From: Shigella phage vB_SboS_Gloob
DNA: 64,000 bases
Reading direction: 5' to 3' (one strand)
Sequence record: OL615011
In this document: positions 787 through 62,375 of the stretch, piece by piece
Layout: each line of letters begins with the position of its first letter
How positions within the stretch are numbered: position 1 is the stretch's first letter
Program-made: the position numbers and the translations under genes
The notes under the pieces: generated by a model
What the model was told of the DNA's origin: nothing
The model's input: only the letters and a program-made list of their open reading frames with translations
The model's database searches: none

Positions 787-1556
787 CGATCCGGCCAGAC
801 TCCGTTCTGTTCTTTATCCATGCGATGGTACAGACGAACACGCTCAAACATCTTTGTCAGGATGTCATCGCGGTTGAACTCTATGATGGTTGGCGTCAAC
901 GATGACTCGTTGGCAATCACATTGATGAGGCGGGTGATCTTGACACCGAACATCTGCTGGAACATAACAGAGTACAAGCACAGCTGGATACTGTAGTCCT
1001 CGATCATTCCCCGCGTCTTCATGGTGTTCGATGTCTTGAAGTCGATGATAGCAGGCTTACCCTCATAAACCCCGATAAGGTCCACTCGACCTGCGAGACC
1101 AAGCACCTCGCTATATAACGGGATCTCCTGAGCATAGATCTTTGTCATCTTGTTCAGATAGGGGAACAGCTGCTTGAACATGAACATGTATTCGCCAGCC
1201 GCTTCCAACACTTCTTTCATTGGGCGGTTCTTCAAATACAGTTCACATGCAAGGTGCAGCTTCTCCCCTCGGTCAGCGCAACGCATGGTCTCAAGGTCGG
1301 CGGCCTCTGCACCCAGCTTCTCCCTCCAAGCCTCAAGCCATTCATGATCACCAGTACGCCCCAGCATCGTCGTTACAGACGTCAGCTTGACACCAGTTGG
1401 TGACACATAATGACGACCGTTCTCCGTCGTCACACACTCCAGTTCCTTATGAGGAAGTTCGTACTGCTGGAATGTGTAATGACGATTTTCGAAGTCGTTC
1501 AGCTTGCGCAGGGCTTGGAGAGATGCCATCAGGAACCATCCATATATTTTCGCCAA
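783..1556 (-). CDS. PD-(D/E)xK-type nuclease-like protein (257 aa)
   Basis: ORF track; motif VDLIGVYEGKPAIIDFKTS resembles D...ExK nuclease core; no search performed. Confidence 0.4.
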   Translation of the reverse strand: MAKIYGWFLMASLQALRKLNDFENRHYTFQQYELPHKELECVTTENGRHYVSPTGVKLTSVTTMLGRTGDHEWLEAWREKLGAEAADLETMRCADRGEKLHLACELYLKNRPMKEVLEAAGEYMFMFKQLFPYLNKMTKIYAQEIPLYSEVLGLAGRVDLIGVYEGKPAIIDFKTSNTMKTRGMIEDYSIQLCLYSVMFQQMFGVKITRLINVIANESSLTPTIIEFNRDDILTKMFERVRLYHRMDKEQNGVWPDR

Positions 1557-3938: not shown

Positions 3939-3961
3939 AGAAAATACCCCCATGGATGATG

Positions 3962-3972
3962 GGGGTATTTAG
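3962..3972 (-). promoter_or_regulatory. late promoter motif CTAAATACCCC inside a palindrome (AAATACCCCCAT / ATGGGGGTATTT)
   Basis: Exact motif 25-30 nt upstream of gene start 3938; inverted repeat spans about 3936-3972. Confidence 0.5.
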
Positions 3973-5385: not shown

Positions 5386-5415
5386 TATACGGGGTTTATT
5401 GAAGAAGTAAACCCC
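5386..5415 (-). promoter_or_regulatory. sigma70-like early promoter overlapping a 10-bp-stem hairpin
   Basis: Minus strand reads GTTTAC-N17-TATACT; hairpin ACGGGGTTTA..TAAACCCCGT encloses the spacer; plus-strand flank is T-rich. Confidence 0.4.
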
Positions 5416-5436
5416 GTTTATTGAATAAATTTAAAA

Positions 5437-7803: not shown

Positions 7804-9135
7804 TTAGAACAGACCTTTGATCAGACCTTTACGGAAGTAAGGGTTGCTGTCCTGAGCGATACCATCGGCAGTCACGTAAACCTGTGGGTCCTGGTTCGCT
7901 GGGATCTGTACGAATGGGTTCGCGCAGATGCCGTAACGAGTTTTGAACGCCATACGTGGGCTGAAGGTGGTTTCACCCTGGGTGCGGTACATTTCCAGCG
8001 GCACATACGGCGCGAAGAAGATACCAGCATCCAGCGCGGTTGCGCCTTTGTACGCCAGGGTGATGTATTCAGCAACCGCATACGGGTCGATGTATACACG
8101 CATACCGTTGGACAGTACACCAGCGAAGGTCTGGCCAGTTGGGTCGATCGCCAGCTTGGTGTTTTCCTGCAGCGCCGGAGCGTAATCCAGCATGCCGGAC
8201 ATTGCCAGAGCGGATGCTACGTTCGGAGAACACAGAACACGGTTGCCTTTACCACGACGGGTGTCAACACCGATGCCGTTCGCTTCAACTTCCAGCATGA
8301 AAGTCATGTACTTCCATTTTTCCAGCGCCCAACGACCGGAGATGTCGGTGGAGATGTCTACAACGCCGTTTGCGCCGAATTTTTTGAAGCGTACTGCACT
8401 GAAGTTCATGGTACGGATGAACTCACGGTTCATTTCCGCCTGAATTTCAGTTACCATCACGTCGGACAGGATGCTGTCAACGTCTTCGCCGTGGATCGCC
8501 ATCATGTCCTGGCGCAGTTCATGGCTGTAGTCAGCGTACAGGCCACGAGACTTCGCAGTCACGGTTGCTTTCTGAACGGTGATACCAACACGCGCCCATG
8601 GGTTGGTGGTGGTGCCCAGCAGTTCAGCGTCGGTGGTTGGCATGCCTTTACCGATGGTGGTCACGCCAGCGCCGGAACCTTCGATCTCGGCCTGAGTAAA
8701 GCCAGATGGATCGCCAGCCTGTACAGTACCGTCACCAGAGTAGCCGGAATCAGCTTCCTGCATGAACAGTTCTTTACGGGACTGTTGGGTGTTGGATGAG
8801 TCGCCGACGCCCTGGCGAGCACGCAGAGCAAAGATCTGACCGTCAGGACCAGACAGCGGCTGTACGCCGAAGAAGTCCATCGCGATGTTGATCGGAGCCA
8901 GACGTTTTGCCATGTCGATCAGGACTGGCTGCCATTTGCCCACAGAGTTGTTCACAGAACCAGGAGCGTCAGATTCGCCCAGGTTTTTGGCGTTCCACTC
9001 AGCCTGGTTTTGCAGCAGGCGGACAGCAACGTTTTCGGCAGAAAGCGGCTGGATACTTTCAGATTCTTTCTGAAGAACTGGCAGCCACTGCTCGCGCATT
9101 TGTTCGGTAACAAGTTTCTTAGCCATGATGGTCAT
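7804..9135 (-). CDS. major capsid protein, T4 gp23-like (443 aa)
   Basis: GVQPLSGPDGQIFALRA and C-terminus YFRKGLIKGLF parallel remembered T4 gp23; position after scaffold and protease genes. Confidence 0.9.
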   Translation of the reverse strand: MTIMAKKLVTEQMREQWLPVLQKESESIQPLSAENVAVRLLQNQAEWNAKNLGESDAPGSVNNSVGKWQPVLIDMAKRLAPINIAMDFFGVQPLSGPDGQIFALRARQGVGDSSNTQQSRKELFMQEADSGYSGDGTVQAGDPSGFTQAEIEGSGAGVTTIGKGMPTTDAELLGTTTNPWARVGITVQKATVTAKSRGLYADYSHELRQDMMAIHGEDVDSILSDVMVTEIQAEMNREFIRTMNFSAVRFKKFGANGVVDISTDISGRWALEKWKYMTFMLEVEANGIGVDTRRGKGNRVLCSPNVASALAMSGMLDYAPALQENTKLAIDPTGQTFAGVLSNGMRVYIDPYAVAEYITLAYKGATALDAGIFFAPYVPLEMYRTQGETTFSPRMAFKTRYGICANPFVQIPANQDPQVYVTADGIAQDSNPYFRKGLIKGLF

Positions 9136-9186
9136 TCCTTACATTGATATTCAGTTAAGTTGAAATTACTTAGTAGTTCAAAATCA

Positions 9187-9204
9187 AGCCCCCTTTCGAG
9201 GGCT
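9187..9204 (-). terminator. hairpin terminator after scaffold gene
   Basis: AGCCC..GGGCT stem followed by U-rich tract on minus strand. Confidence 0.45.
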
Positions 9205-9217
9205 GTGGCTGCTAAAA

Positions 9218-10090
9218 TTAGCCGTTGATGCCGAAGCGACGATTATAGTCGGCCAACTGACGCTTGATAGATTCTTTCAGCTCTTTGTCTGTTTCATCTT
9301 CATCGTCTTTGCCATCATCGTCGCCATCATCGCCTTCTTTCTTAGACTTTTTGCCTTCGTCGACTTTGTCTTTGTCGCCTTTGTTGTCGTCGTCACCGTC
9401 TTTGCCGCCGACTTTGTCCTGGAAGTCGTCATCGTCATCGCCTTCTTTCTTAGCAGACTTACCTTCTACCAGGTTGCGGAAGGTGTGTACGCGGGAAGCG
9501 AATTCGCTTTCGGTGGTGAACTGCACCGCTTCCAGCAGATTGACAACCGTTGCTTTCTTGGTGTCGACCATGCCTTCACAGATACGGGCGATCACAGAGT
9601 CGCGCAGAGTCGCATTCGCGGCTTCTTTGATTTGACGGTTTTCGCTTTCAGCAGCCGCAGCGCGTTGTTCTGCTTCGGTCAGGCGGGCAGTCAGCGCAGC
9701 GATCTGGCCGTTTTCGTCAGTCGCAAAGTTGATACCAGCTTCTTTCAGAACGCCAGTCAGGCCAGTCAGCAGGTTTTCAGCTGCTTCACGCTTGATCTGA
9801 GCATCGATTGCAGGAGCGTTGGTGTTAGCCCACTCTTCTACAACAGCGTTCAGGAAGCTGTCAACTTTGGTTGCGATCTCCATCAAGTGAGACTCTTTCA
9901 GCTGAGCAATCTCAGACTGATGAGCTTCAACCAGACGCAGGCGCTCGACGTTGGCAGCGTTTTCGGTTTCTTGAATAGCGGTCAGGCGAGCGGCTTCTAC
10001 TTTAGATTCCAGCAGGCCAGACACTTTATCCAGGAAGTCGGGGCTGAGGCCGTTAACGCCCTCAAACAGTTTTTGCAATTCAGGTTTCAT
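9218..10090 (-). CDS. prohead scaffolding protein, gp22-like (290 aa)
   Basis: Coiled-coil plus poly-acidic D/E/K low-complexity tail; located between protease and capsid genes as in T4. Confidence 0.65.
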   Translation of the reverse strand: MKPELQKLFEGVNGLSPDFLDKVSGLLESKVEAARLTAIQETENAANVERLRLVEAHQSEIAQLKESHLMEIATKVDSFLNAVVEEWANTNAPAIDAQIKREAAENLLTGLTGVLKEAGINFATDENGQIAALTARLTEAEQRAAAAESENRQIKEAANATLRDSVIARICEGMVDTKKATVVNLLEAVQFTTESEFASRVHTFRNLVEGKSAKKEGDDDDDFQDKVGGKDGDDDNKGDKDKVDEGKKSKKEGDDGDDDGKDDEDETDKELKESIKRQLADYNRRFGING

Positions 10091-33462: not shown

Positions 33463-33466
33463 GATA

Positions 33467-33507
33467 ATACCCCATAGAGGATTTGCCAATATGGGGTATT
33501 TAGTGAA
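33467..33507 (-). repeat. 41-nt promoter/leader module, copy 2
   Basis: Identical to 31248-31288. Confidence 0.75.
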
Positions 33508-36521: not shown

Positions 36522-36554
36522 TTCAAATACCCCTAAATGTGTTCGTTTCATCTA

Positions 36555-36565
36555 GGGGTATTTAG
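36555..36565 (-). promoter_or_regulatory. late promoter motif CTAAATACCCC with downstream palindrome
   Basis: Exact motif about 30 nt upstream of ATG 36521. Confidence 0.5.
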
Positions 36566-41530: not shown

Positions 41531-43413
41531 CTCAAAGAGGAGAGGACTTTTCAAATTAGCTGGGCTGCGGTAAAGTATTAAACGTGAGGCGAACAGCGCA
41601 TTGAGTTAGGCATCTAAAGCCGACCTCACTAATCCCAGTCTCAGGGGCATGCGTGAATAGAGGCGTGACATCCACCTTGCATGGTGTTAGTGGACGCACT
41701 GACCGTCGGAGAACGAAACTCCCTGTTGTAGCGTGATTAGCTCAGAAATAGAGAGCACCCCGTTGGCAAGTCGACACCAACACATAGGGGAGGTCGGGGG
41801 CGCTAATCTCCATCACGCCGACAACATTATGAGTCTTCACAGAGGGTTCATAATGTTGCGTCAAAGGGCAACACAAAGGTTCCTGTTGGTTGAATTAACT
41901 TGATTCATAGTTCCTGCTGATCTTCCCGGATTCGAAGGAGCACCAACAGGCGAGGCCGGATGCGTAAGTTCCGGCAAATCGATGGCGAGGTGGTGCATTG
42001 GTGACACGGGGTAGCGCCCAGAAGTGTGGTTCGATTCCACACCCTCGCCAACAAATTAAAGGGTTTTCAATAACGGGTTGTAGAGTATAGTTAACCCACT
42101 GAACGAAAAGCTGTTTGGGCATTAGACAAACACTTCGATGTGAACCCAGGACATGGCGTCTTGTGCTCAAACAGGTTTTCGTTCTCGTTGCTTGCGGCTT
42201 TGCGGGTTTTAAGAAACAGACCACAAAGATAAATGCAAATGATAACGCTTATCTGGCAGTAGCTTAACAGCTAAAACACCAGTGAGGTCTTCCGACTCCT
42301 CATAACGAAATTCGGCGCACTAAAATAGGCGGGAGGGTGTGATTAATAAGCTCCCGCCGACATCTGAGAGGGCACTTGATCGAGGTCGGTATCCGCTATA
42401 CGGGATGCTGTAAAATGAATCCACGGAGTGTCCTCCCAGATGTGACTCACAGCACATCAGTTTGCAGTTATGCAAGCTTCAATAAGTTAAAACACGCCTC
42501 AGGCGTTCTGGGATGAAGCCCTGAAAAGTGGAATCCCCAGGGCTGGCAATCCCTGTTAAAGAAGTAGCCGTGTGGGGGTCAGCCCCCCACAACGCAAAGT
42601 AGAGTCCTCTGGACATTGAACTTAACCCAAGGGTTGATTCACATGGTGAACGTTCCCGGCGGCGATAGTACAAGATGAGGGGTCATTGAAGTTCAGAGAA
42701 CTCTACTTTGCGGCAGGTACTGCAAAACAGTGATCATCCTGACAAGTGTGATCACTCTACGATACAAACTGAGTTCGGGCTATCAACCCATACCGTTCTG
42801 GCGGGTCACAAAATACCAGAGAACAAGTTTGCTATCGGCCAGCCTCGTTTGGTCTGAACGTTAGAGGACAAGTGCTGAAGTGTGACGAAGACACTGAAGT
42901 GCGGGTTGTTTAGTGAATCCTGCTAAGCGCAAGGGTTGAGTGGCAAGAACCACCTGAGGATAAGTCAACGCCATTATTCGCCATGATAATGGCATCGGGA
43001 GGCACCCGACACTAAACCGTTTGGCCTGGCGAAAGCAGGCAAGTATCTGGGGTCGATCACCTTATCCTCACCCAGATGCGGGTTGCAGCCTGGCTGCAAC
43101 TCTGATGGCTCTCAATATTCCATAATGTATATCGGTTGTGGATGACAGGTAAATGAGCGGAAAGGCGAGAGCCATCAGAGTTGTGACCAACCCGATCTTG
43201 CAAGCCCGTATCCCTGTATGGTCAAGACTTGCAAGTGGAAAGCCCTGGAAAAATAAACGCCTGTTGTGAGGCCACGGTGCAAGCCAATGACCAACAGAAG
43301 CGCATGCCGTGAGGCGCACAAAGAGGCCTGCATGAACTGATCATGCACAAACGGGATAAAGGGTTGACAGTCCTTGGTTGGTTGCACAATAATGTGTATT
43401 AGGAGCAACATCA
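41531..43413. other. ORF-free, hairpin-dense region; candidate structured ncRNA(s) or cis-acting DNA element
   Basis: No credible ORF on either strand; long perfect inverted repeats and reiterated GGGTTG motif (see findings). Confidence 0.5.
41949..42050 (+). other. tRNA-like element with canonical T-arm and acceptor 3' half but aberrant 5' half
   Basis: TGTGG-TTCGATT-CCACA then CCTCGCC pairing with upstream GGCGAGG; body does not fit a standard cloverleaf. Confidence 0.25.
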
Positions 43414-43635
43414 ATGAGTTATTTTGTATGTGTCTGTGATGTTGAATATTTTGATAAATTTGCTAGGGAATCTTTCTATTCTTTCTTACCGATCCAATCG
43501 TTTAAAACTGAATCGGAAGCAAATAAATCAATGGAACTAATGAGACCTCTTTACAGGAAGGAACTTGCTATTTTGCAGGATTCTGACCTAATAATCATGG
43601 GTAATAGGATCACAAGATCGGTGCCCAAGATATAA
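43414..43635 (+). CDS. hypothetical protein (73 aa) abutting tRNA-Met
   Basis: AGGAG SD; stop 6 nt before tRNA. Confidence 0.45.
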   Translation: MSYFVCVCDVEYFDKFARESFYSFLPIQSFKTESEANKSMELMRPLYRKELAILQDSDLIIMGNRITRSVPKI

Positions 43636-43641
43636 AATTTC

Positions 43642-43717
<76 letters not shown>

Positions 43718-44126
43718 TATTAAGGGGCGATAGTTTAAGGGATAGCTGTCCGGACAGCGAATCCTCATAGAGAACGGCTGGGCGGCCAAACCCAGCAGGT
43801 GAGGTGAAAAGCCTCAGACCCCGCCAAATTTGTGTTGAAGAGACGTTGGGTCAGAACCAACTCGCCCGAAAGGGGGATCGTATAGCGGTAATTATGCTTC
43901 GACACAACAGCATTATGGGGAGCACCGATGAGATGAGGGTTCGGGCGAGTTAAGCGACGGCCGATTAAGTCCTGTACTCTGTTCAAGGTGGTCTTAACCT
44001 CCCCACCAAATATTGTTGGACTGCCAGCAAGCTCCGGTCTACGGCAGGCGTGATGGGATCGCGGAATTCAAATACCGCCTTGGGAGCACCTAAATAAACC
44101 AGTTGTTCAATAAACAGTTGGTGAGT

Positions 44127-44327
44127 ATGATGAAAACGTTCGGTGATTTTATTGCTGAGTGGGATGGCCTCGCTACCGACAACAAAGAGATTGTCGAGTT
44201 TGTTGAAAAGCGAGGTGACAAGTGGGTTGTCCTTGACCACACCAAGACGAAGGTTCTTGGTACACATGACACCAAAGCTGACGCTGATGCCCAATTAAGG
44301 GCGATTGAAGCGAACAAGCACGGATAA
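44127..44327 (+). CDS. hypothetical protein (about 66 aa) abutting tRNA-Asn
   Basis: ORF track (track start is TTG at 44103; ATG at 44127). Confidence 0.4.
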   Translation: MMKTFGDFIAEWDGLATDNKEIVEFVEKRGDKWVVLDHTKTKVLGTHDTKADADAQLRAIEANKHG

Positions 44328-44328
44328 A

Positions 44329-44404
44329 GACGATGTAGTTCAGTCGGTAGAACGGTGGACTGTTAATCCATATGTCACAGGTTCAAGTCCTGTCATCGTC
44401 GCCA
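44329..44404 (+). tRNA. tRNA-Asn (anticodon GTT)
   Basis: GACGATG acceptor, D-arm GTTC-AGTCGGTA-GAAC, anticodon loop CTGTTAA, T-arm ACAGG-TTCAAGT-CCTGT, CCA encoded. Confidence 0.8.
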
Positions 44405-44661
44405 GACAATGGGTGTGAACGAAAGTGAATAGGCACGAAGTACGCGACCGACAAGCTCCAAGCCTCTGTCCAATAGCCGAACGGAATCTGAAGACGACGA
44501 TAGTAACGCCCACCAAATTCAGAGTGTAGAGGCTACAGTAGTGCGCACCTCACGGGTTGCTACACCGGACACTCTGATACAAATCTGCCGCTGCGTGGAT
44601 TAGCTGAGGAAGGATGGCCGATGTCCTCGAGCGTGGCCCAGCACGCAGCGGTAGACCAAAT

Positions 44662-44745
44662 GTGAGTGTGGCAGAGCGGTCGAATGCAGGAGACTGTAAA
44701 TCTCCCCGTAACAGCGCGGTGGTTCGAATCCATCCACTCACACCA
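44662..44745 (+). tRNA. tRNA-Tyr (anticodon GTA), long variable arm
   Basis: Acceptor GTGAGTG/CACTCAC, anticodon stem GGAGA/TCTCC with loop CTGTAAA, T-loop TTCGAAT, CCA encoded. Confidence 0.7.
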
Positions 44746-44886
44746 AACACAGTAAGCGTTGCAGCCACGCTGTGTATCTGGCCAGAAGGCACTGGTCGCC
44801 AGTTAACCAATCGGCGCTGAGAAGCGCGGGGAGTTGGGCTACGGCAGATCAAATGCTCAATCGGGTGTGAAGCCCGTCTAAATTTC

Positions 44887-44970
44887 GCGGGAGCCATAGG
44901 GGTTGGACAGTAGCCGACTGATCATCGGCGACGATCACTGGACAGGTTCGAATCCTGATCTCCCGCTCCA
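44887..44970 (+). tRNA. probable tRNA-Ile (anticodon GAT) with atypical T-stem and long variable region
   Basis: Acceptor GCGGGAG/CTCCCGC, anticodon stem GCCGA/TCGGC with loop CTGATCA, T-loop TTCGAAT; geometry imperfect by eye. Confidence 0.4.
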
Positions 44971-44974
44971 AATT

Positions 44975-45063
44975 GGAAGGTTGCCCGAGAGGTTTAAGAG
45001 ACTCGACTGCTAATCGAGTGGGGCTTTTAGCCCCCGAAGGTTCGAATCCTTCACCTTCCGCCA
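44975..45063 (+). tRNA. tRNA-Ser (anticodon GCT), long variable arm
   Basis: Acceptor GGAAGGT/ACCTTCC, anticodon stem CTCGA/TCGAG with loop CTGCTAA, variable arm TGGGGCTTTTAGCCCCC, T-arm GAAGG-TTCGAAT-CCTTC, CCA encoded. Confidence 0.75.
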
Positions 45064-45158
45064 AATTTGCGATCATCGCGGAAATCCCAGACGCGAGTGG
45101 AGGCCAGGGTGAAGACTGGCACAGTTCATCGACGGCAAAGATGGCTGTCTCCTGGAAT

Positions 45159-45224
45159 TGGGTGGCCTGAATGGTAGGGAAAGCGAGCCAAGCGTCGTGG
45201 GTTCAATTCCCACTCACCCAGCCC
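45159..45224 (+). other. truncated tRNA-like element (about 62 nt)
   Basis: T-arm GTGGG-TTCAATT-CCCAC and acceptor TGGGTGG/TCACCCA but only about 31 nt where D and anticodon arms should be. Confidence 0.25.
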
Positions 45225-45474
45225 CAGATGGAATGGGTCCATCATCGCAAATCATATTTTGGGCGTGACTTCCTGAAGAGTTAGAAGATGTGCATGTCGA
45301 CTCTCTCGTAATCAGGTGTTTAGGAAGTTAAGAAAATCGGAGCGAGGATGGTGAAATGCAAATAGCTTTCTCTACGCTTACGACTTCGGGTTCGATTCCC
45401 GACGCGCTCTCCCATAGGGCAGTACCAGTGCAAAGTGTGTAGTCTTTTCAACCCATCCCCATCGATGTGGCATA

Positions 45475-45503
45475 GCCAGGTAAGGAAACCTGGCTTTCTT
45501 TTG
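45475..45503 (+). terminator. rho-independent terminator ending the tRNA region
   Basis: GCCAGGT-AAGGAA-ACCTGGC followed by TTTCTTTTG. Confidence 0.7.
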
Positions 45504-45508
45504 TCCGG

Positions 45509-45516
45509 TATAAATA
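45509..45516 (+). promoter_or_regulatory. T4-type late promoter box TATAAATA
   Basis: Exact T4 late consensus about 28 nt upstream of ATG 45544. Confidence 0.4.
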
Positions 45517-45543
45517 GATCTGAACTTGTACAGGAGGTGTATC

Positions 45544-45780
45544 ATGGCAACAGCCAAGTTTACTCTGGATGCAAGTACATGGACGCAAGTCTCAGATGGC
45601 ACATCATTGAAAACAATACAAGTGACTCAAGGTTCTGTGTATTTGTGCGATAACCCAACCACGCCGAGTGCTTCCTCTCCGGCTCATACTCTCTATCAAG
45701 GTAATATCGTTGTGCTCACCCCGCCGACTGTTGGGTGGGTTAAGAGCGCGTCTTCTGCTTCCTCTGTTATCGTGTCCTAG
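45544..45780 (+). CDS. hypothetical protein (78 aa)
   Basis: AGGAGG SD; ATG. Confidence 0.5.
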   Translation: MATAKFTLDASTWTQVSDGTSLKTIQVTQGSVYLCDNPTTPSASSPAHTLYQGNIVVLTPPTVGWVKSASSASSVIVS

Positions 45781-46307: not shown

Positions 46308-46324
46308 TTTGTTCAACAACTAAT

Positions 46325-46354
46325 AGGGGTTTAAAATTTAACCGTTAAACCCCT
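46325..46354 (+). terminator. hairpin GGGGTTTAA...TTAAACCCC
   Basis: Perfect 9-bp stem after stop at 46307. Confidence 0.5.
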
Positions 46355-46377
46355 ATCATTGATTTGAGGATACACCA

Positions 46378-62326: not shown

Positions 62327-62341
62327 TCGTTCTTCAATAAA

Positions 62342-62375
62342 AGGGGATAGGGTATTATTGCTCTATCCCCTTTTT
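62342..62375 (+). terminator. terminator GGGGATAGGG-TATTATTG-CTCTATCCCC plus TTTTT
   Basis: Preceded by GTTCTTCAATAAAA. Confidence 0.6.

Follow-up and report, generated by a model that had tools for sequence, protein, structure and literature searches.

Conserved RNA motifs in the tRNA-cluster spacers of Shigella phage vB_SboS_Gloob: candidate small stable RNAs shared between phage families

Introduction

The tRNA cluster of the virulent coliphage T4 encodes two stable RNAs, rnaC (species 1) and rnaD (species 2), whose roles are unknown (PMC3014915). Small structured RNAs of another kind, the theta ribozymes related to that of hepatitis delta virus (HDV), lie directly 3' of tRNA genes in Caudoviricetes and have been proposed to act at the tRNA 3' end (PMC10879173), and the intervening sequences of permuted transfer-messenger RNA (tmRNA) genes, one of which is known to hold an intact tRNA, are excised by tRNA-processing enzymes (PMC11915505). 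Our study concerns the tRNA cluster of Shigella phage vB_SboS_Gloob (record OL615011; the window is the whole 64,000-nt stretch analysed, read 5' to 3' on one strand), in whose spacers a first-pass annotation had marked three perfect inverted repeats, here called E1, E2 and E3, as candidate small stable RNAs and possible analogues of the T4 pair. By following E2 and E3 through other genomes we find that in about 350 phages at least two unannotated RNA motifs, both clearly under selection, lie in tRNA-cluster spacers, which are normally annotated as empty.

Results

Three inverted repeats and their chance expectation

All three repeats are read directly in the sequence and were found again by a repeat scan:

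43859-43870 with 43940-43951, + strand: E1, AACTCGCCCGAA pairing with TTCGGGCGAGTT, 12 bp, perfect, arms 69 nt apart
44520-44527 with 44569-44576, + strand: E2, CAGAGTGT pairing with ACACTCTG, 8 bp
44588-44597 with 44642-44651, + strand: E3, CCGCTGCGTG pairing with CACGCAGCGG, 10 bp, extendable in the repeat scan to 14 bp (44584-44597 with 44642-44655)

The end given for E1 by the first-pass annotation, 43946, falls about 5 nt short of the true 43951. An 8-bp repeat within 60 nt is expected about 58 times per 64 kb (64000 x 60 / 4^8), and since dozens of such repeats should arise by chance, that of E2 is insignificant by sequence alone; for a perfect 12-mer repeat within about 100 nt the expectation is about 0.4 per window. 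The repeat-scan list holds four repeats of at least 12 nt with arms more than 40 nt apart, and all four lie within 42.5-44.7 kb. As judged from the sequences compared below, the decisive support for E2 and E3 is comparative, and the comparative evidence for E1 is negative.

Rfam (15) has no family for E1, E2 or E3 at gathering thresholds or with E up to 10, giving only chance-level microRNA and plastid matches, and neither ARAGORN nor the Rfam tRNA model (RF00005, E up to 10) finds a tRNA at any of them. A terminator reading of the three was also ruled out: the stems are followed by AAGCGAC (E1), AUACAAA (E2) and CCAAAU (E3) with no U-run, and a terminator scan found none there.

E2 is a three-helix motif with a conserved core

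The E2 motif comprises the following elements, all on the + strand:

44520-44576, + strand: E2 motif, 57 nt, with an 8-bp P1, a 4-bp P2 and a 3-bp P3
44520-44527 with 44569-44576: P1
44529-44532 with 44548-44551: P2
44533-44547: loop L2, whose first bases plus G44532 read GCUACA, with GUAG at 44538-44541
44541-44548: palindrome GUGCGCAC, in L2 and reaching the first base on the 3' side of P2
44553-44555 with 44565-44567: P3
44556-44564: loop L3, with CUAC at 44560-44563

The helices follow one another as P1, an unpaired A, P2 with its 15-nt loop, an unpaired A, P3 with its 9-nt loop, an unpaired G and the 3' strand of P1. In an alignment of 11 distinct sequences (MAFFT, with the boundaries of the T5-like sequences shifted by one base to bring the closing stems into register), 97.6% of 165 cells are paired and 7 of the 15 pairs have changed on both sides; none of 500 shuffles reaches these values, and the signal collapses when the pairing partners are slid against each other. 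RNAalifold, run unguided, predicts the identical structure, and the E2 covariance model scores 78.5 bits on the + strand against 12.6 bits on the - strand. The GUAG of loop 2 and the CUAC of loop 3 are complementary, and we propose that Watson-Crick pairing between them would tie the two arms together like the elbow of a tRNA. A relaxed-pattern search for variants of this loop-loop pairing returned no real ones, the matches at L220 and L221 being due to chance.

A search with the spacer between tRNA-Asn and tRNA-Tyr unexpectedly matched T5-like and N4-like phages, and BLAST with a T5-like copy located E2 in 357 phage records, none of which annotates it as RNA. The carriers are Ackermannviridae, T5-like (Demerecviridae) and N4-like (Schitoviridae) phages and environmental contigs; the environmental lineages come from pattern scans of viral and metagenome contigs, for which a loose first pattern gave mainly coding-sequence noise and a tightened version was used. 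E2 typically starts 3-5 nt past the CCA of a tRNA, which is tRNA-Lys, tRNA-Ile or tRNA-Tyr depending on the phage. One copy stands right after tRNA-Lys in chee158 and another right after tRNA-Ile in Erwinia phage Ea9-2, both on the tRNA strand, and that of the window begins 4 nt past the CCA of a neighbouring spacer module, U4. In contig L011 the intervening sequence of a permuted (two-piece) tmRNA gene is nearly all E2, which comes directly after the CCA of the acceptor piece and is an insertion relative to both Rfam tmRNA models. Two copies have a different setting: that of the environmental phage contig L160 is held in a 1.8-kb gap (8142-9983) without any open reading frame (ORF) of at least 90 amino acids (aa), between the large terminase and a P22-like portal gene, and that of L189 lies just upstream of a 141-aa ORF and the large terminase.

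Distant members keep P2, P3 and both loops and alter the scaffold around them. Extra arms occupy the P1-P2 or P3-P1 gap at L026/L160, L063/L189, L065, L118, L162 and L188, the extended scaffold of L160 including a T-arm-like hairpin (GCCG-UUAGAAU-CGGC), and closing stems reach 14-17 bp at L165 and L188. Because the scaffold varies in this way and P2, P3 and the loops do not, the conserved unit is the core, which consists of GCUACAGUAG plus the palindrome in loop 2 and NNGCUACA in loop 3. At L199 (about 1240-1340, minus strand) the same core stands where an otherwise complete tRNA-like scaffold, with a GCGGGGU acceptor, a D arm and a T arm (GCAGGUUCAAGUCCUGC), would have its anticodon and variable region, an insertion which argues that the core is a separate functional unit. 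The L199 arrangement is also a natural counterpart of the laboratory "tRNA scaffold" for RNA expression.

The E2 loop palindrome and a predicted dimer

In every credible E2 member a self-complementary sequence of 8-10 nt follows directly after GUA, with one exception of 6 nt that is offset by one. About ten different palindromes, varying with the lineage, occupy this one loop position: GUGCGCAC, GGUGCACC, GUGAUCAC, GGGAUCCC, GUGCGCGCAC, GGUAUACC, GUUCGAAC, GGGUACCC, GGUGCGCACC and UGAUCA. E2 thereby has what defines a kissing element, namely self-complementarity in an apical loop and a symmetry kept through sequence change. Computed duplex energies of the palindromes run from -9 to -20 kcal/mol; as a nested cofold, two E2 copies gain 8.3 kcal/mol over two monomers (-44.3 against -36.0). 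Since a palindrome in a hairpin loop cannot pair with itself within one molecule, and since its symmetry has been kept, pairing between two E2 molecules is the best explanation; on these models the palindrome would most likely link a pair of E2 molecules through their loops.

E3 is a second motif with a near-invariant core

The elements of E3, again on the + strand, are these:

44584-44655 plus CCA at 44656-44658, + strand: E3 motif, a 72-nt hairpin plus CCA
44584-44597 with 44642-44655: P1
44598-44602: J1/2, GAUUA
44603-44610 with 44624-44628 and 44630-44632: P2, with G44629 bulged
44611-44623: loop L2, with GGCCG at 44616-44620
44633-44641: J2/1, GUGGCCCAG, with UGGCC, a candidate pseudoknot partner, at 44634-44638

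P1 measures 14-18 bp across lineages and is wholly different in sequence in each, and the 44-nt core that it closes is nearly invariant: the GAUUA junction, the bulged helix P2 (GCU plus GAGGA with UCCUC plus AGC, the bulge being of 1-4 nt), a 13-nt loop and GUGGCCCAG. Over ten distinct sequences every one of 230 cells is paired and 13 pairs have changed on both sides, a result matched by none of 500 shuffles; RNAalifold gives the same P1 and P2. Compensatory changes are seen in every helix of E2 and E3. The E3 covariance model scores 88.3 bits on the + strand against 7.5 bits on the - strand, and G-U pairs are frequent in P1; these pairs, together with the strand-specific scores of both motifs, identify the + strand RNA as the folding molecule. 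GGCCG in the loop and UGGCC in the 3' junction are compatible at all five pairs in all sequences, one C-to-U change keeping a G-U pair, and a GGCC(G):(U)GGCC pseudoknot could form. A relaxed-pattern search for variants of it yielded no new E3 loci.

By BLAST, E3 is present in 260 phage records and annotated as RNA in none. Its hosts are Ackermannviridae, Gamaleyavirus (N4-like) phages and environmental contigs; the core matched an unannotated region of the N4-like phage G17, and pattern scans placed E3 in Taipeivirus, two environmental lineages and several G7C/G17-like phages. In Ackermannviridae the motif is flanked by CCAAA on its 5' side and CCAAAU on its 3' side (in the window it ends GGUAGA-CCA-AAU, with CCAAAU at 44656-44661), giving it the likeness of a helix with a 3' CCA. 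In Taipeivirus E3 comes directly after U4 and E2 about 120 nt further downstream, an order differing from that of the window, and E2 and E3 are therefore independent cassettes; both their presence and their order differ between related phages.

Two further sets of candidate E3 copies were rejected. Fourteen pattern matches in bacterial genomes score at most 20 bits by the E3 model, within chance expectation, and a supposed second, degenerate copy at 42111-42174, in a tmRNA-like region upstream of the cluster, scores an insignificant 4.6 bits.

The tRNA cluster as a plausible single transcription unit

E2 and E3 are embedded in a unit of tRNA genes and spacer modules bounded by transcription signals:

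43364-43393, + strand: sigma-70-like promoter (TTGACA, 18 nt, AATAAT; 11 of 12 matches), heading the tRNA/RNA-module unit
43642-43717, + strand: tRNA-Met (CAT)
43724-43826, + strand: module U1, a four-way-junction RNA with GGGG/CCCC closure and a GCCA end, 88-100% conserved across Ackermannviridae genera
44329-44404, + strand: tRNA-Asn (GTT)
44410-44515, + strand: module U4, with GGGUGUG/(U)AACGCCC closure and an ACCA end, 79-100% conserved across Ackermannviridae
44662-44745, + strand: tRNA-Tyr (GTA), starting 3 nt past the CCA of E3
44975-45063, + strand: tRNA-Ser
45474-45495, + strand: intrinsic-terminator-like hairpin with a U-run, closing the unit

The four tRNAs (Met, Asn, Tyr, Ser) are called on the + strand by both ARAGORN and Rfam, and from these signals the whole stretch between promoter and terminator is plausibly one + strand precursor. 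The promoter also stands upstream of the homologous M5 module (see below) in phages S118 and CRW-SP2. The region matches Ackermannviridae phages and is near Shigella phage Ag3, which is 100% identical across 44405-44661; the match is 80-98% for Enterobacter phage EspM4VN and for Kuttervirus, Taipeivirus and Limestonevirus phages. The spacers are unannotated in the relatives' records, save for occasional short "hypothetical proteins".

The unit is punctuated by CCAAAY, which occurs eight times on the + strand in 43786-45066 where about 0.7 would be expected from its window-wide + strand density (about eleven-fold), and seven of these eight sites are the 3' end of a tRNA or spacer module. CCAAAU forms the 3' end of U1, X6 (a further module, described below), U4 and E3.

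The cluster holds other elements in addition. Spacer modules U7, U9 and U10 (44746-44886, 45064-45225 and 45226-45412) are conserved across Ackermannviridae genera; the 3' ends of U9 and U10 carry a T arm and an acceptor-like strand (GGGUUCAAUUCCCAC... and UCGGGUUCGAUUCCCGA-CGCGCUC-U-CCCA), and both are much longer than tRNAs. At 44887-44970 there is a tRNA-like gene that ARAGORN does not call, with a GCGGGAG/CUCCCGC acceptor, a T arm containing GGUUCGAAUCC, a CCA end and a CUGAUCA loop (anticodon GAU); its Rfam tRNA-Sec score is only 21 bits. A tRNA-Ile, possibly the counterpart of this gene, is annotated in the same cluster of Shigella phage MK-13. A small ORF (65-74 aa) at 44103-44327, also within the cluster, is kept in relatives and has no Pfam match; the annotation of its Ag3 counterpart notes similarity to Aeromonas phage Aeh1 p176.

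E1 joins two separate modules

The arms of E1 fall in different modules of the spacer between tRNA-Met and tRNA-Asn:

43830-43907, + strand: module M5, a conserved cloverleaf with outer stem UUGUGUUGAAG/CUUCGACACAA, holding the E1 5' arm
43859-43870, + strand: E1 5' arm, covering one strand of each M5 hairpin (3' strand of hairpin 1, 5' strand of hairpin 2) and part of the tetraloop
43916-44009, + strand: module X6, with GGGGAGC/CUCCCC closure followed by ACCA, holding the E1 3' arm
43940-43951, + strand: E1 3' arm, within X6

M5 contains a hairpin (GUUGG-GUCAGAA-CCAAC), a GNRA-capped hairpin (UCGCCC-GAAA-GGGGGA) and a D-arm-like segment. Both local hairpins that overlap the E1 5' arm are conserved, and the GNRA-capped one, which carries most of that arm, shows a compensatory pair; the outer stem has compensatory substitutions between the Agtrevirus/Taipeivirus and Kuttervirus copies, and the CRW-SP2 copy ends in ACCAAAU. 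The arrangement is suggestive of a circularly permuted tRNA, with its ends in the anticodon loop and a cap closing the acceptor end. When M5 was un-permuted in silico, ARAGORN called a tRNA in three of four homologs at 90% of its default threshold and in none at the default; calls arose only from cut points around the GNRA hairpin, and none of 200 shuffles was called.

X6 stands apart from this pattern of conservation. Its fold is no better than that of shuffles (z = -0.70), and neither the phage collection nor any fetched locus contains a match to 43911-44012, the X6 half, which is missing from the closest relatives; the conserved part of the spacer segment that holds E1 is the first ~70 nt only, in 15 phage records. 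Folding 43830-44012 gives two separate domains, with the E1 pairing in neither the minimum-energy nor the centroid structure. E1 is a lineage-specific complementarity between the cassettes M5 and X6 and not a conserved RNA stem; this complementarity may be accidental or regulatory.

The first-pass annotation had grouped all three repeats as small stable RNA candidates, to be recognized by covariation across related phages and by conservation of the spacers. For E2 and E3, as candidate small RNAs, the proposal is supported by strong conservation, by helices that covary in three families, by the co-transcription signals and by a placement like that of the T4 RNAs. It is not supported for E1, whose 3' arm has no homolog and is not conserved even in the closest relatives, whose pairing is missing from the folds and whose 5' arm belongs to the M5 hairpins.

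The upstream ORF-free region and other repeats

About 1.9 kb without real ORFs lies upstream of the tRNA cluster. It includes, at 41985-42051, a tRNA-like domain without an anticodon arm (GGCGAGG...GUGUGGUUCGAUUCCACACCCUCGCCAACA) and, about 180 nt downstream of it (42234-42266), AUAAAU followed by GCAAAUGAUAACGCUUAUCUGGCAGUAGCUUAA, a tmRNA-tag-like frame encoding ANDNAYLAVA*. A homologous frame, ANEEAYLMVA*, occurs in the N4-like phage G17 (L005, about 712-745), some 55 nt after its E3 copy. Neither ARAGORN nor Rfam at its gathering threshold finds a tmRNA in the region, and a sub-threshold permuted-tmRNA match (23.4 bits, E = 0.028) covers 42136-42267; from these features the region may be an unrecognised phage tmRNA-like gene. 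Two other matches are a sub-threshold one to the Salmonella small RNA family STnc100 at 42908-43017 (38.6 bits against a gathering threshold of 47; E = 2e-6) and a weak one to the tRNA model at 41731-41819 (24.2 bits), whose anticodon loop has an insertion of 19 nt.

Two long-range inverted repeats in the same region, one of 17 bp and perfect (43097-43113 with 43167-43183) and one of 22 nt at 91% (42593-42614 with 42691-42712), probably close additional structured RNA modules. Elsewhere in the window short hairpins of the types AAATACCCC...GGGGTATTT or TAAACCCC...GGGGTTTA recur at 3942-3970, 5386-5420, 33466-33500, 36525-36563, 46323-46356 and 62339-62374, and may be a phage-specific family of terminators or regulatory stem-loops.

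Discussion

We lean towards reading E2 and E3 as cassettes that the host's tRNA-processing enzymes release as stable small RNAs. The tRNA cluster would then be an array of independently folding RNA cassettes on one + strand precursor, each starting a few nucleotides past the CCA(AAU) of the preceding unit and closed by an acceptor-like terminal stem. RNase P would cut at the foot of each acceptor-like closing stem, on its 5' side, while RNase E and exonucleases would cut and trim the A/U-rich linker after the CCA, and E2, E3 and the neighbouring cassettes would be freed as discrete stable small RNAs in the manner of tRNAs and of T4 rnaC and rnaD. The maturation of tRNAs in E. coli and the processing of the T4 tRNAs, rnaC and rnaD are the basis of this RNase P/RNase E route. 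The comparisons themselves establish the folds and the selection on them, the strand, the transcription signals, the shuffling of cassettes and their placement past CCA; from these we infer the route, the accumulation of stable RNAs, their dimerisation and any action in trans.

Once freed, E2 would be a tRNA-like RNA without an anticodon arm, having a 4-bp arm in the D-arm position plus a 3-bp arm, and its first loop would expose an 8-nt self-complementary sequence able to pair two E2 molecules. In E3 the long, freely varying closing stem would present the near-invariant core. The conserved cores, the E2 palindrome and the varied scaffolds argue for a function of E2 and E3 of their own, beyond the spacing of tRNAs, and the job of the cores might be, for example, protein or RNA binding.

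Several points weigh against this reading. E2 has no encoded CCA of its own, its tail being AUACAAA, and E3 lacks CCA in N4-like phages and in one environmental contig, so that the RNase P/CCA logic is not universal. Copies of E2 also occur away from predicted tRNAs, beside terminase or portal genes, and the tRNA link of E2 is therefore frequent but not obligatory. Folded as a single sequence, E2 does no better than its shuffles (z = -0.68). The GUAG/CUAC bases are invariant in all E2 retrieved, and the pseudoknot bases essentially invariant in the E3 sequences reached, in both cases partly since the search patterns fixed them. Our search of the literature and data on these phages turned up no expression or end-mapping data.

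A more far-reaching version of the cassette reading, which we offer tentatively, is that E2 is a new class of self-dimerising, tRNA-shaped RNA and E3 a second new class, both loaded onto host tRNA maturation for a job in trans. Such a job might be shared by at least three virulent phage families and by marine phage tmRNA genes, with the conserved core as the active part. Conceivably these RNAs titrate or redirect a host factor directed at the elbow or the acceptor end of tRNAs, candidates being RNase P, a tRNA-cleaving defence nuclease and SmpB/tmRNA; a multimeric RNA assembly, as formed by the phi29 pRNA, is another possible role of the same tentative kind.

The remaining explanations all rank below release as stable RNAs. 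The strongest of them, which we nevertheless think improbable, is a purely cis role in precursor folding or processing: E2 and E3 would fold on themselves, prevent mispairing of the neighbouring tRNAs and supply sites for RNase P and RNase E, leaving the upstream tRNA with a short 3' trailer, and the excised pieces would be degraded without further function. The starts 3-5 nt past CCA, the position of one E2 within the excised intervening sequence of a permuted tmRNA, the freely varying closing stems and the variable presence and order among related phages would all follow from such a role. However, a spacer needs neither a nearly invariant 44-nt E3 core nor the invariant GCUACAGUAG and GCUACA loops of E2, nor does it need a palindrome kept through about ten sequence changes across three phage families, and some E2 copies have no tRNA nearby.

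We consider it distinctly unlikely that E2 or E3 is a new self-cleaving ribozyme trimming the 3' trailer of the upstream tRNA. Some ribozymes act as dimers, and the dimer-forming palindrome is compatible with that; small size, highly conserved unpaired nucleotides, possible tertiary pairings and a genomic position directly 3' of phage tRNAs, as for the theta ribozymes (PMC10879173), also speak for catalysis. The helix topology, however, is not HDV-like, the 5' strand pairing with the 3' end, and over 43300-45600 no Rfam ribozyme family matches with E up to 10, hammerhead, twister, twister-sister, pistol, hatchet and hairpin ribozymes included; on this topology and the lack of model matches we reject an HDV-like, theta or other described ribozyme identity. 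Moreover, tRNAs with encoded CCA and an A/U-rich linker are already good substrates for the host enzymes.

Just as doubtful is the view that the repeats are remnants of decayed tRNA genes, whose acceptor-like stems survive by inertia without present function. The cluster is certainly rich in tRNA-like pieces (the gene at 44887-44970, the permuted-tRNA-like M5, and T-arm units at 45159-45222 and 45340-45410), X6, whose fold is no better than that of shuffles, is confined to this phage, and the L199 contig has the E2 core in a complete tRNA-like scaffold. Decay fits X6 and the E1 pairing only; compensatory changes in all helices of E2 and E3, together with conservation in three families, are the mark of purifying selection on the fold. 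Action of the elements as DNA, in replication, recombination, packaging or nuclease recognition, is very improbable: the E2 loop sequences are palindromic as DNA too, over 6-8 bp, two E2 copies stand beside terminase or portal genes and the modules shuffle between genomes, but the free use of G-U pairs (A-C mismatches on the other strand), the strongly strand-specific model scores and the position within the tRNA transcription unit on the tRNA strand point to RNA, and a protein operator would keep sequence and not merely symmetry.

In a literature search by keyword and sequence string we found neither motif described; the unnamed candidates of large screens, such as the 10,006 of PMC10690425, could include them. 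The motifs are shared horizontally between unrelated phage families, and their carriers include phages used for therapy and biocontrol (Kuttervirus, T5-like, N4-like). At 57 nt (E2) and 72 nt (E3) they are small, concrete biochemical targets, and the E2 palindrome yields a strong and easily tested prediction, RNA homodimerisation, which would be unusual for a small phage RNA. Should E2 and E3 interfere with tRNA-directed enzymes or defences of the host, phages would have in them a new kind of counter-measure; a role confined to aiding processing would show how phages punctuate polycistronic tRNA precursors.

Comparison with known systems

E2 and E3 resemble tRNAs and the tRNA-like domain of tmRNA in their terminal acceptor-like stem, and E2 in addition has arms in the D and T positions with loops able to pair. 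They differ in lacking an anticodon arm, the T-loop consensus and any match to the tRNA model. A further likeness is that E2 occupies the intervening sequence of a tmRNA gene as a tRNA does in another genome (PMC11915505). The theta ribozymes are alike in being found directly downstream of phage tRNAs; their nested double pseudoknot, however, is missing from E2 and E3, which match no model of the HDV family, and their phages have gut Bacteroidota or Bacillota as hosts, whereas those carrying E2 and E3 infect Enterobacteria.

For the loop of E2 the nearest parallel is the dimerisation initiation site of human immunodeficiency virus type 1 (HIV-1), in which a self-complementary sequence in a hairpin loop brings about loop-loop dimerisation. 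Both have a loop palindrome of 6-10 nt whose symmetry outlasts its sequence, and GUGCAC and GCGC-type cores occur in both. The HIV-1 site belongs to a viral genome and E2 to a small phage RNA; moreover, the E2 loop has other invariant bases, and its dimer is a prediction.

The closest counterparts by setting are T4 rnaC and rnaD, and a comparison with them puts the T4 "species 1 and 2" RNAs, a puzzle for 50 years, on a broader comparative base. Like the T4 pair, E2 and E3 are non-coding, lie between tRNA genes of a virulent phage on the tRNA strand and within the tRNA transcription unit, and are associated with CCAAAU, which in T4 surrounds tRNA-Arg, rnaD and rnaC. T4 rnaC is itself partly tRNA-like, with a T arm and an acceptor end; among the elements described here E3, U1, U4 and X6 end in NCCA, and E2 starts after a CCA without having its own. 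The analogy proposed by the first-pass annotation thus holds for the kind of place and for the CCAAAU punctuation and does not extend to homology, there being no similarity in sequence or structure and no match of the E2 or E3 covariance model in the T4 tRNA region (L131). E2 and E3 differ from rnaC and rnaD in their smaller size, in their occurrence in three other phage families and in two features not seen in T4, the palindromic loop of E2 and the core of E3.

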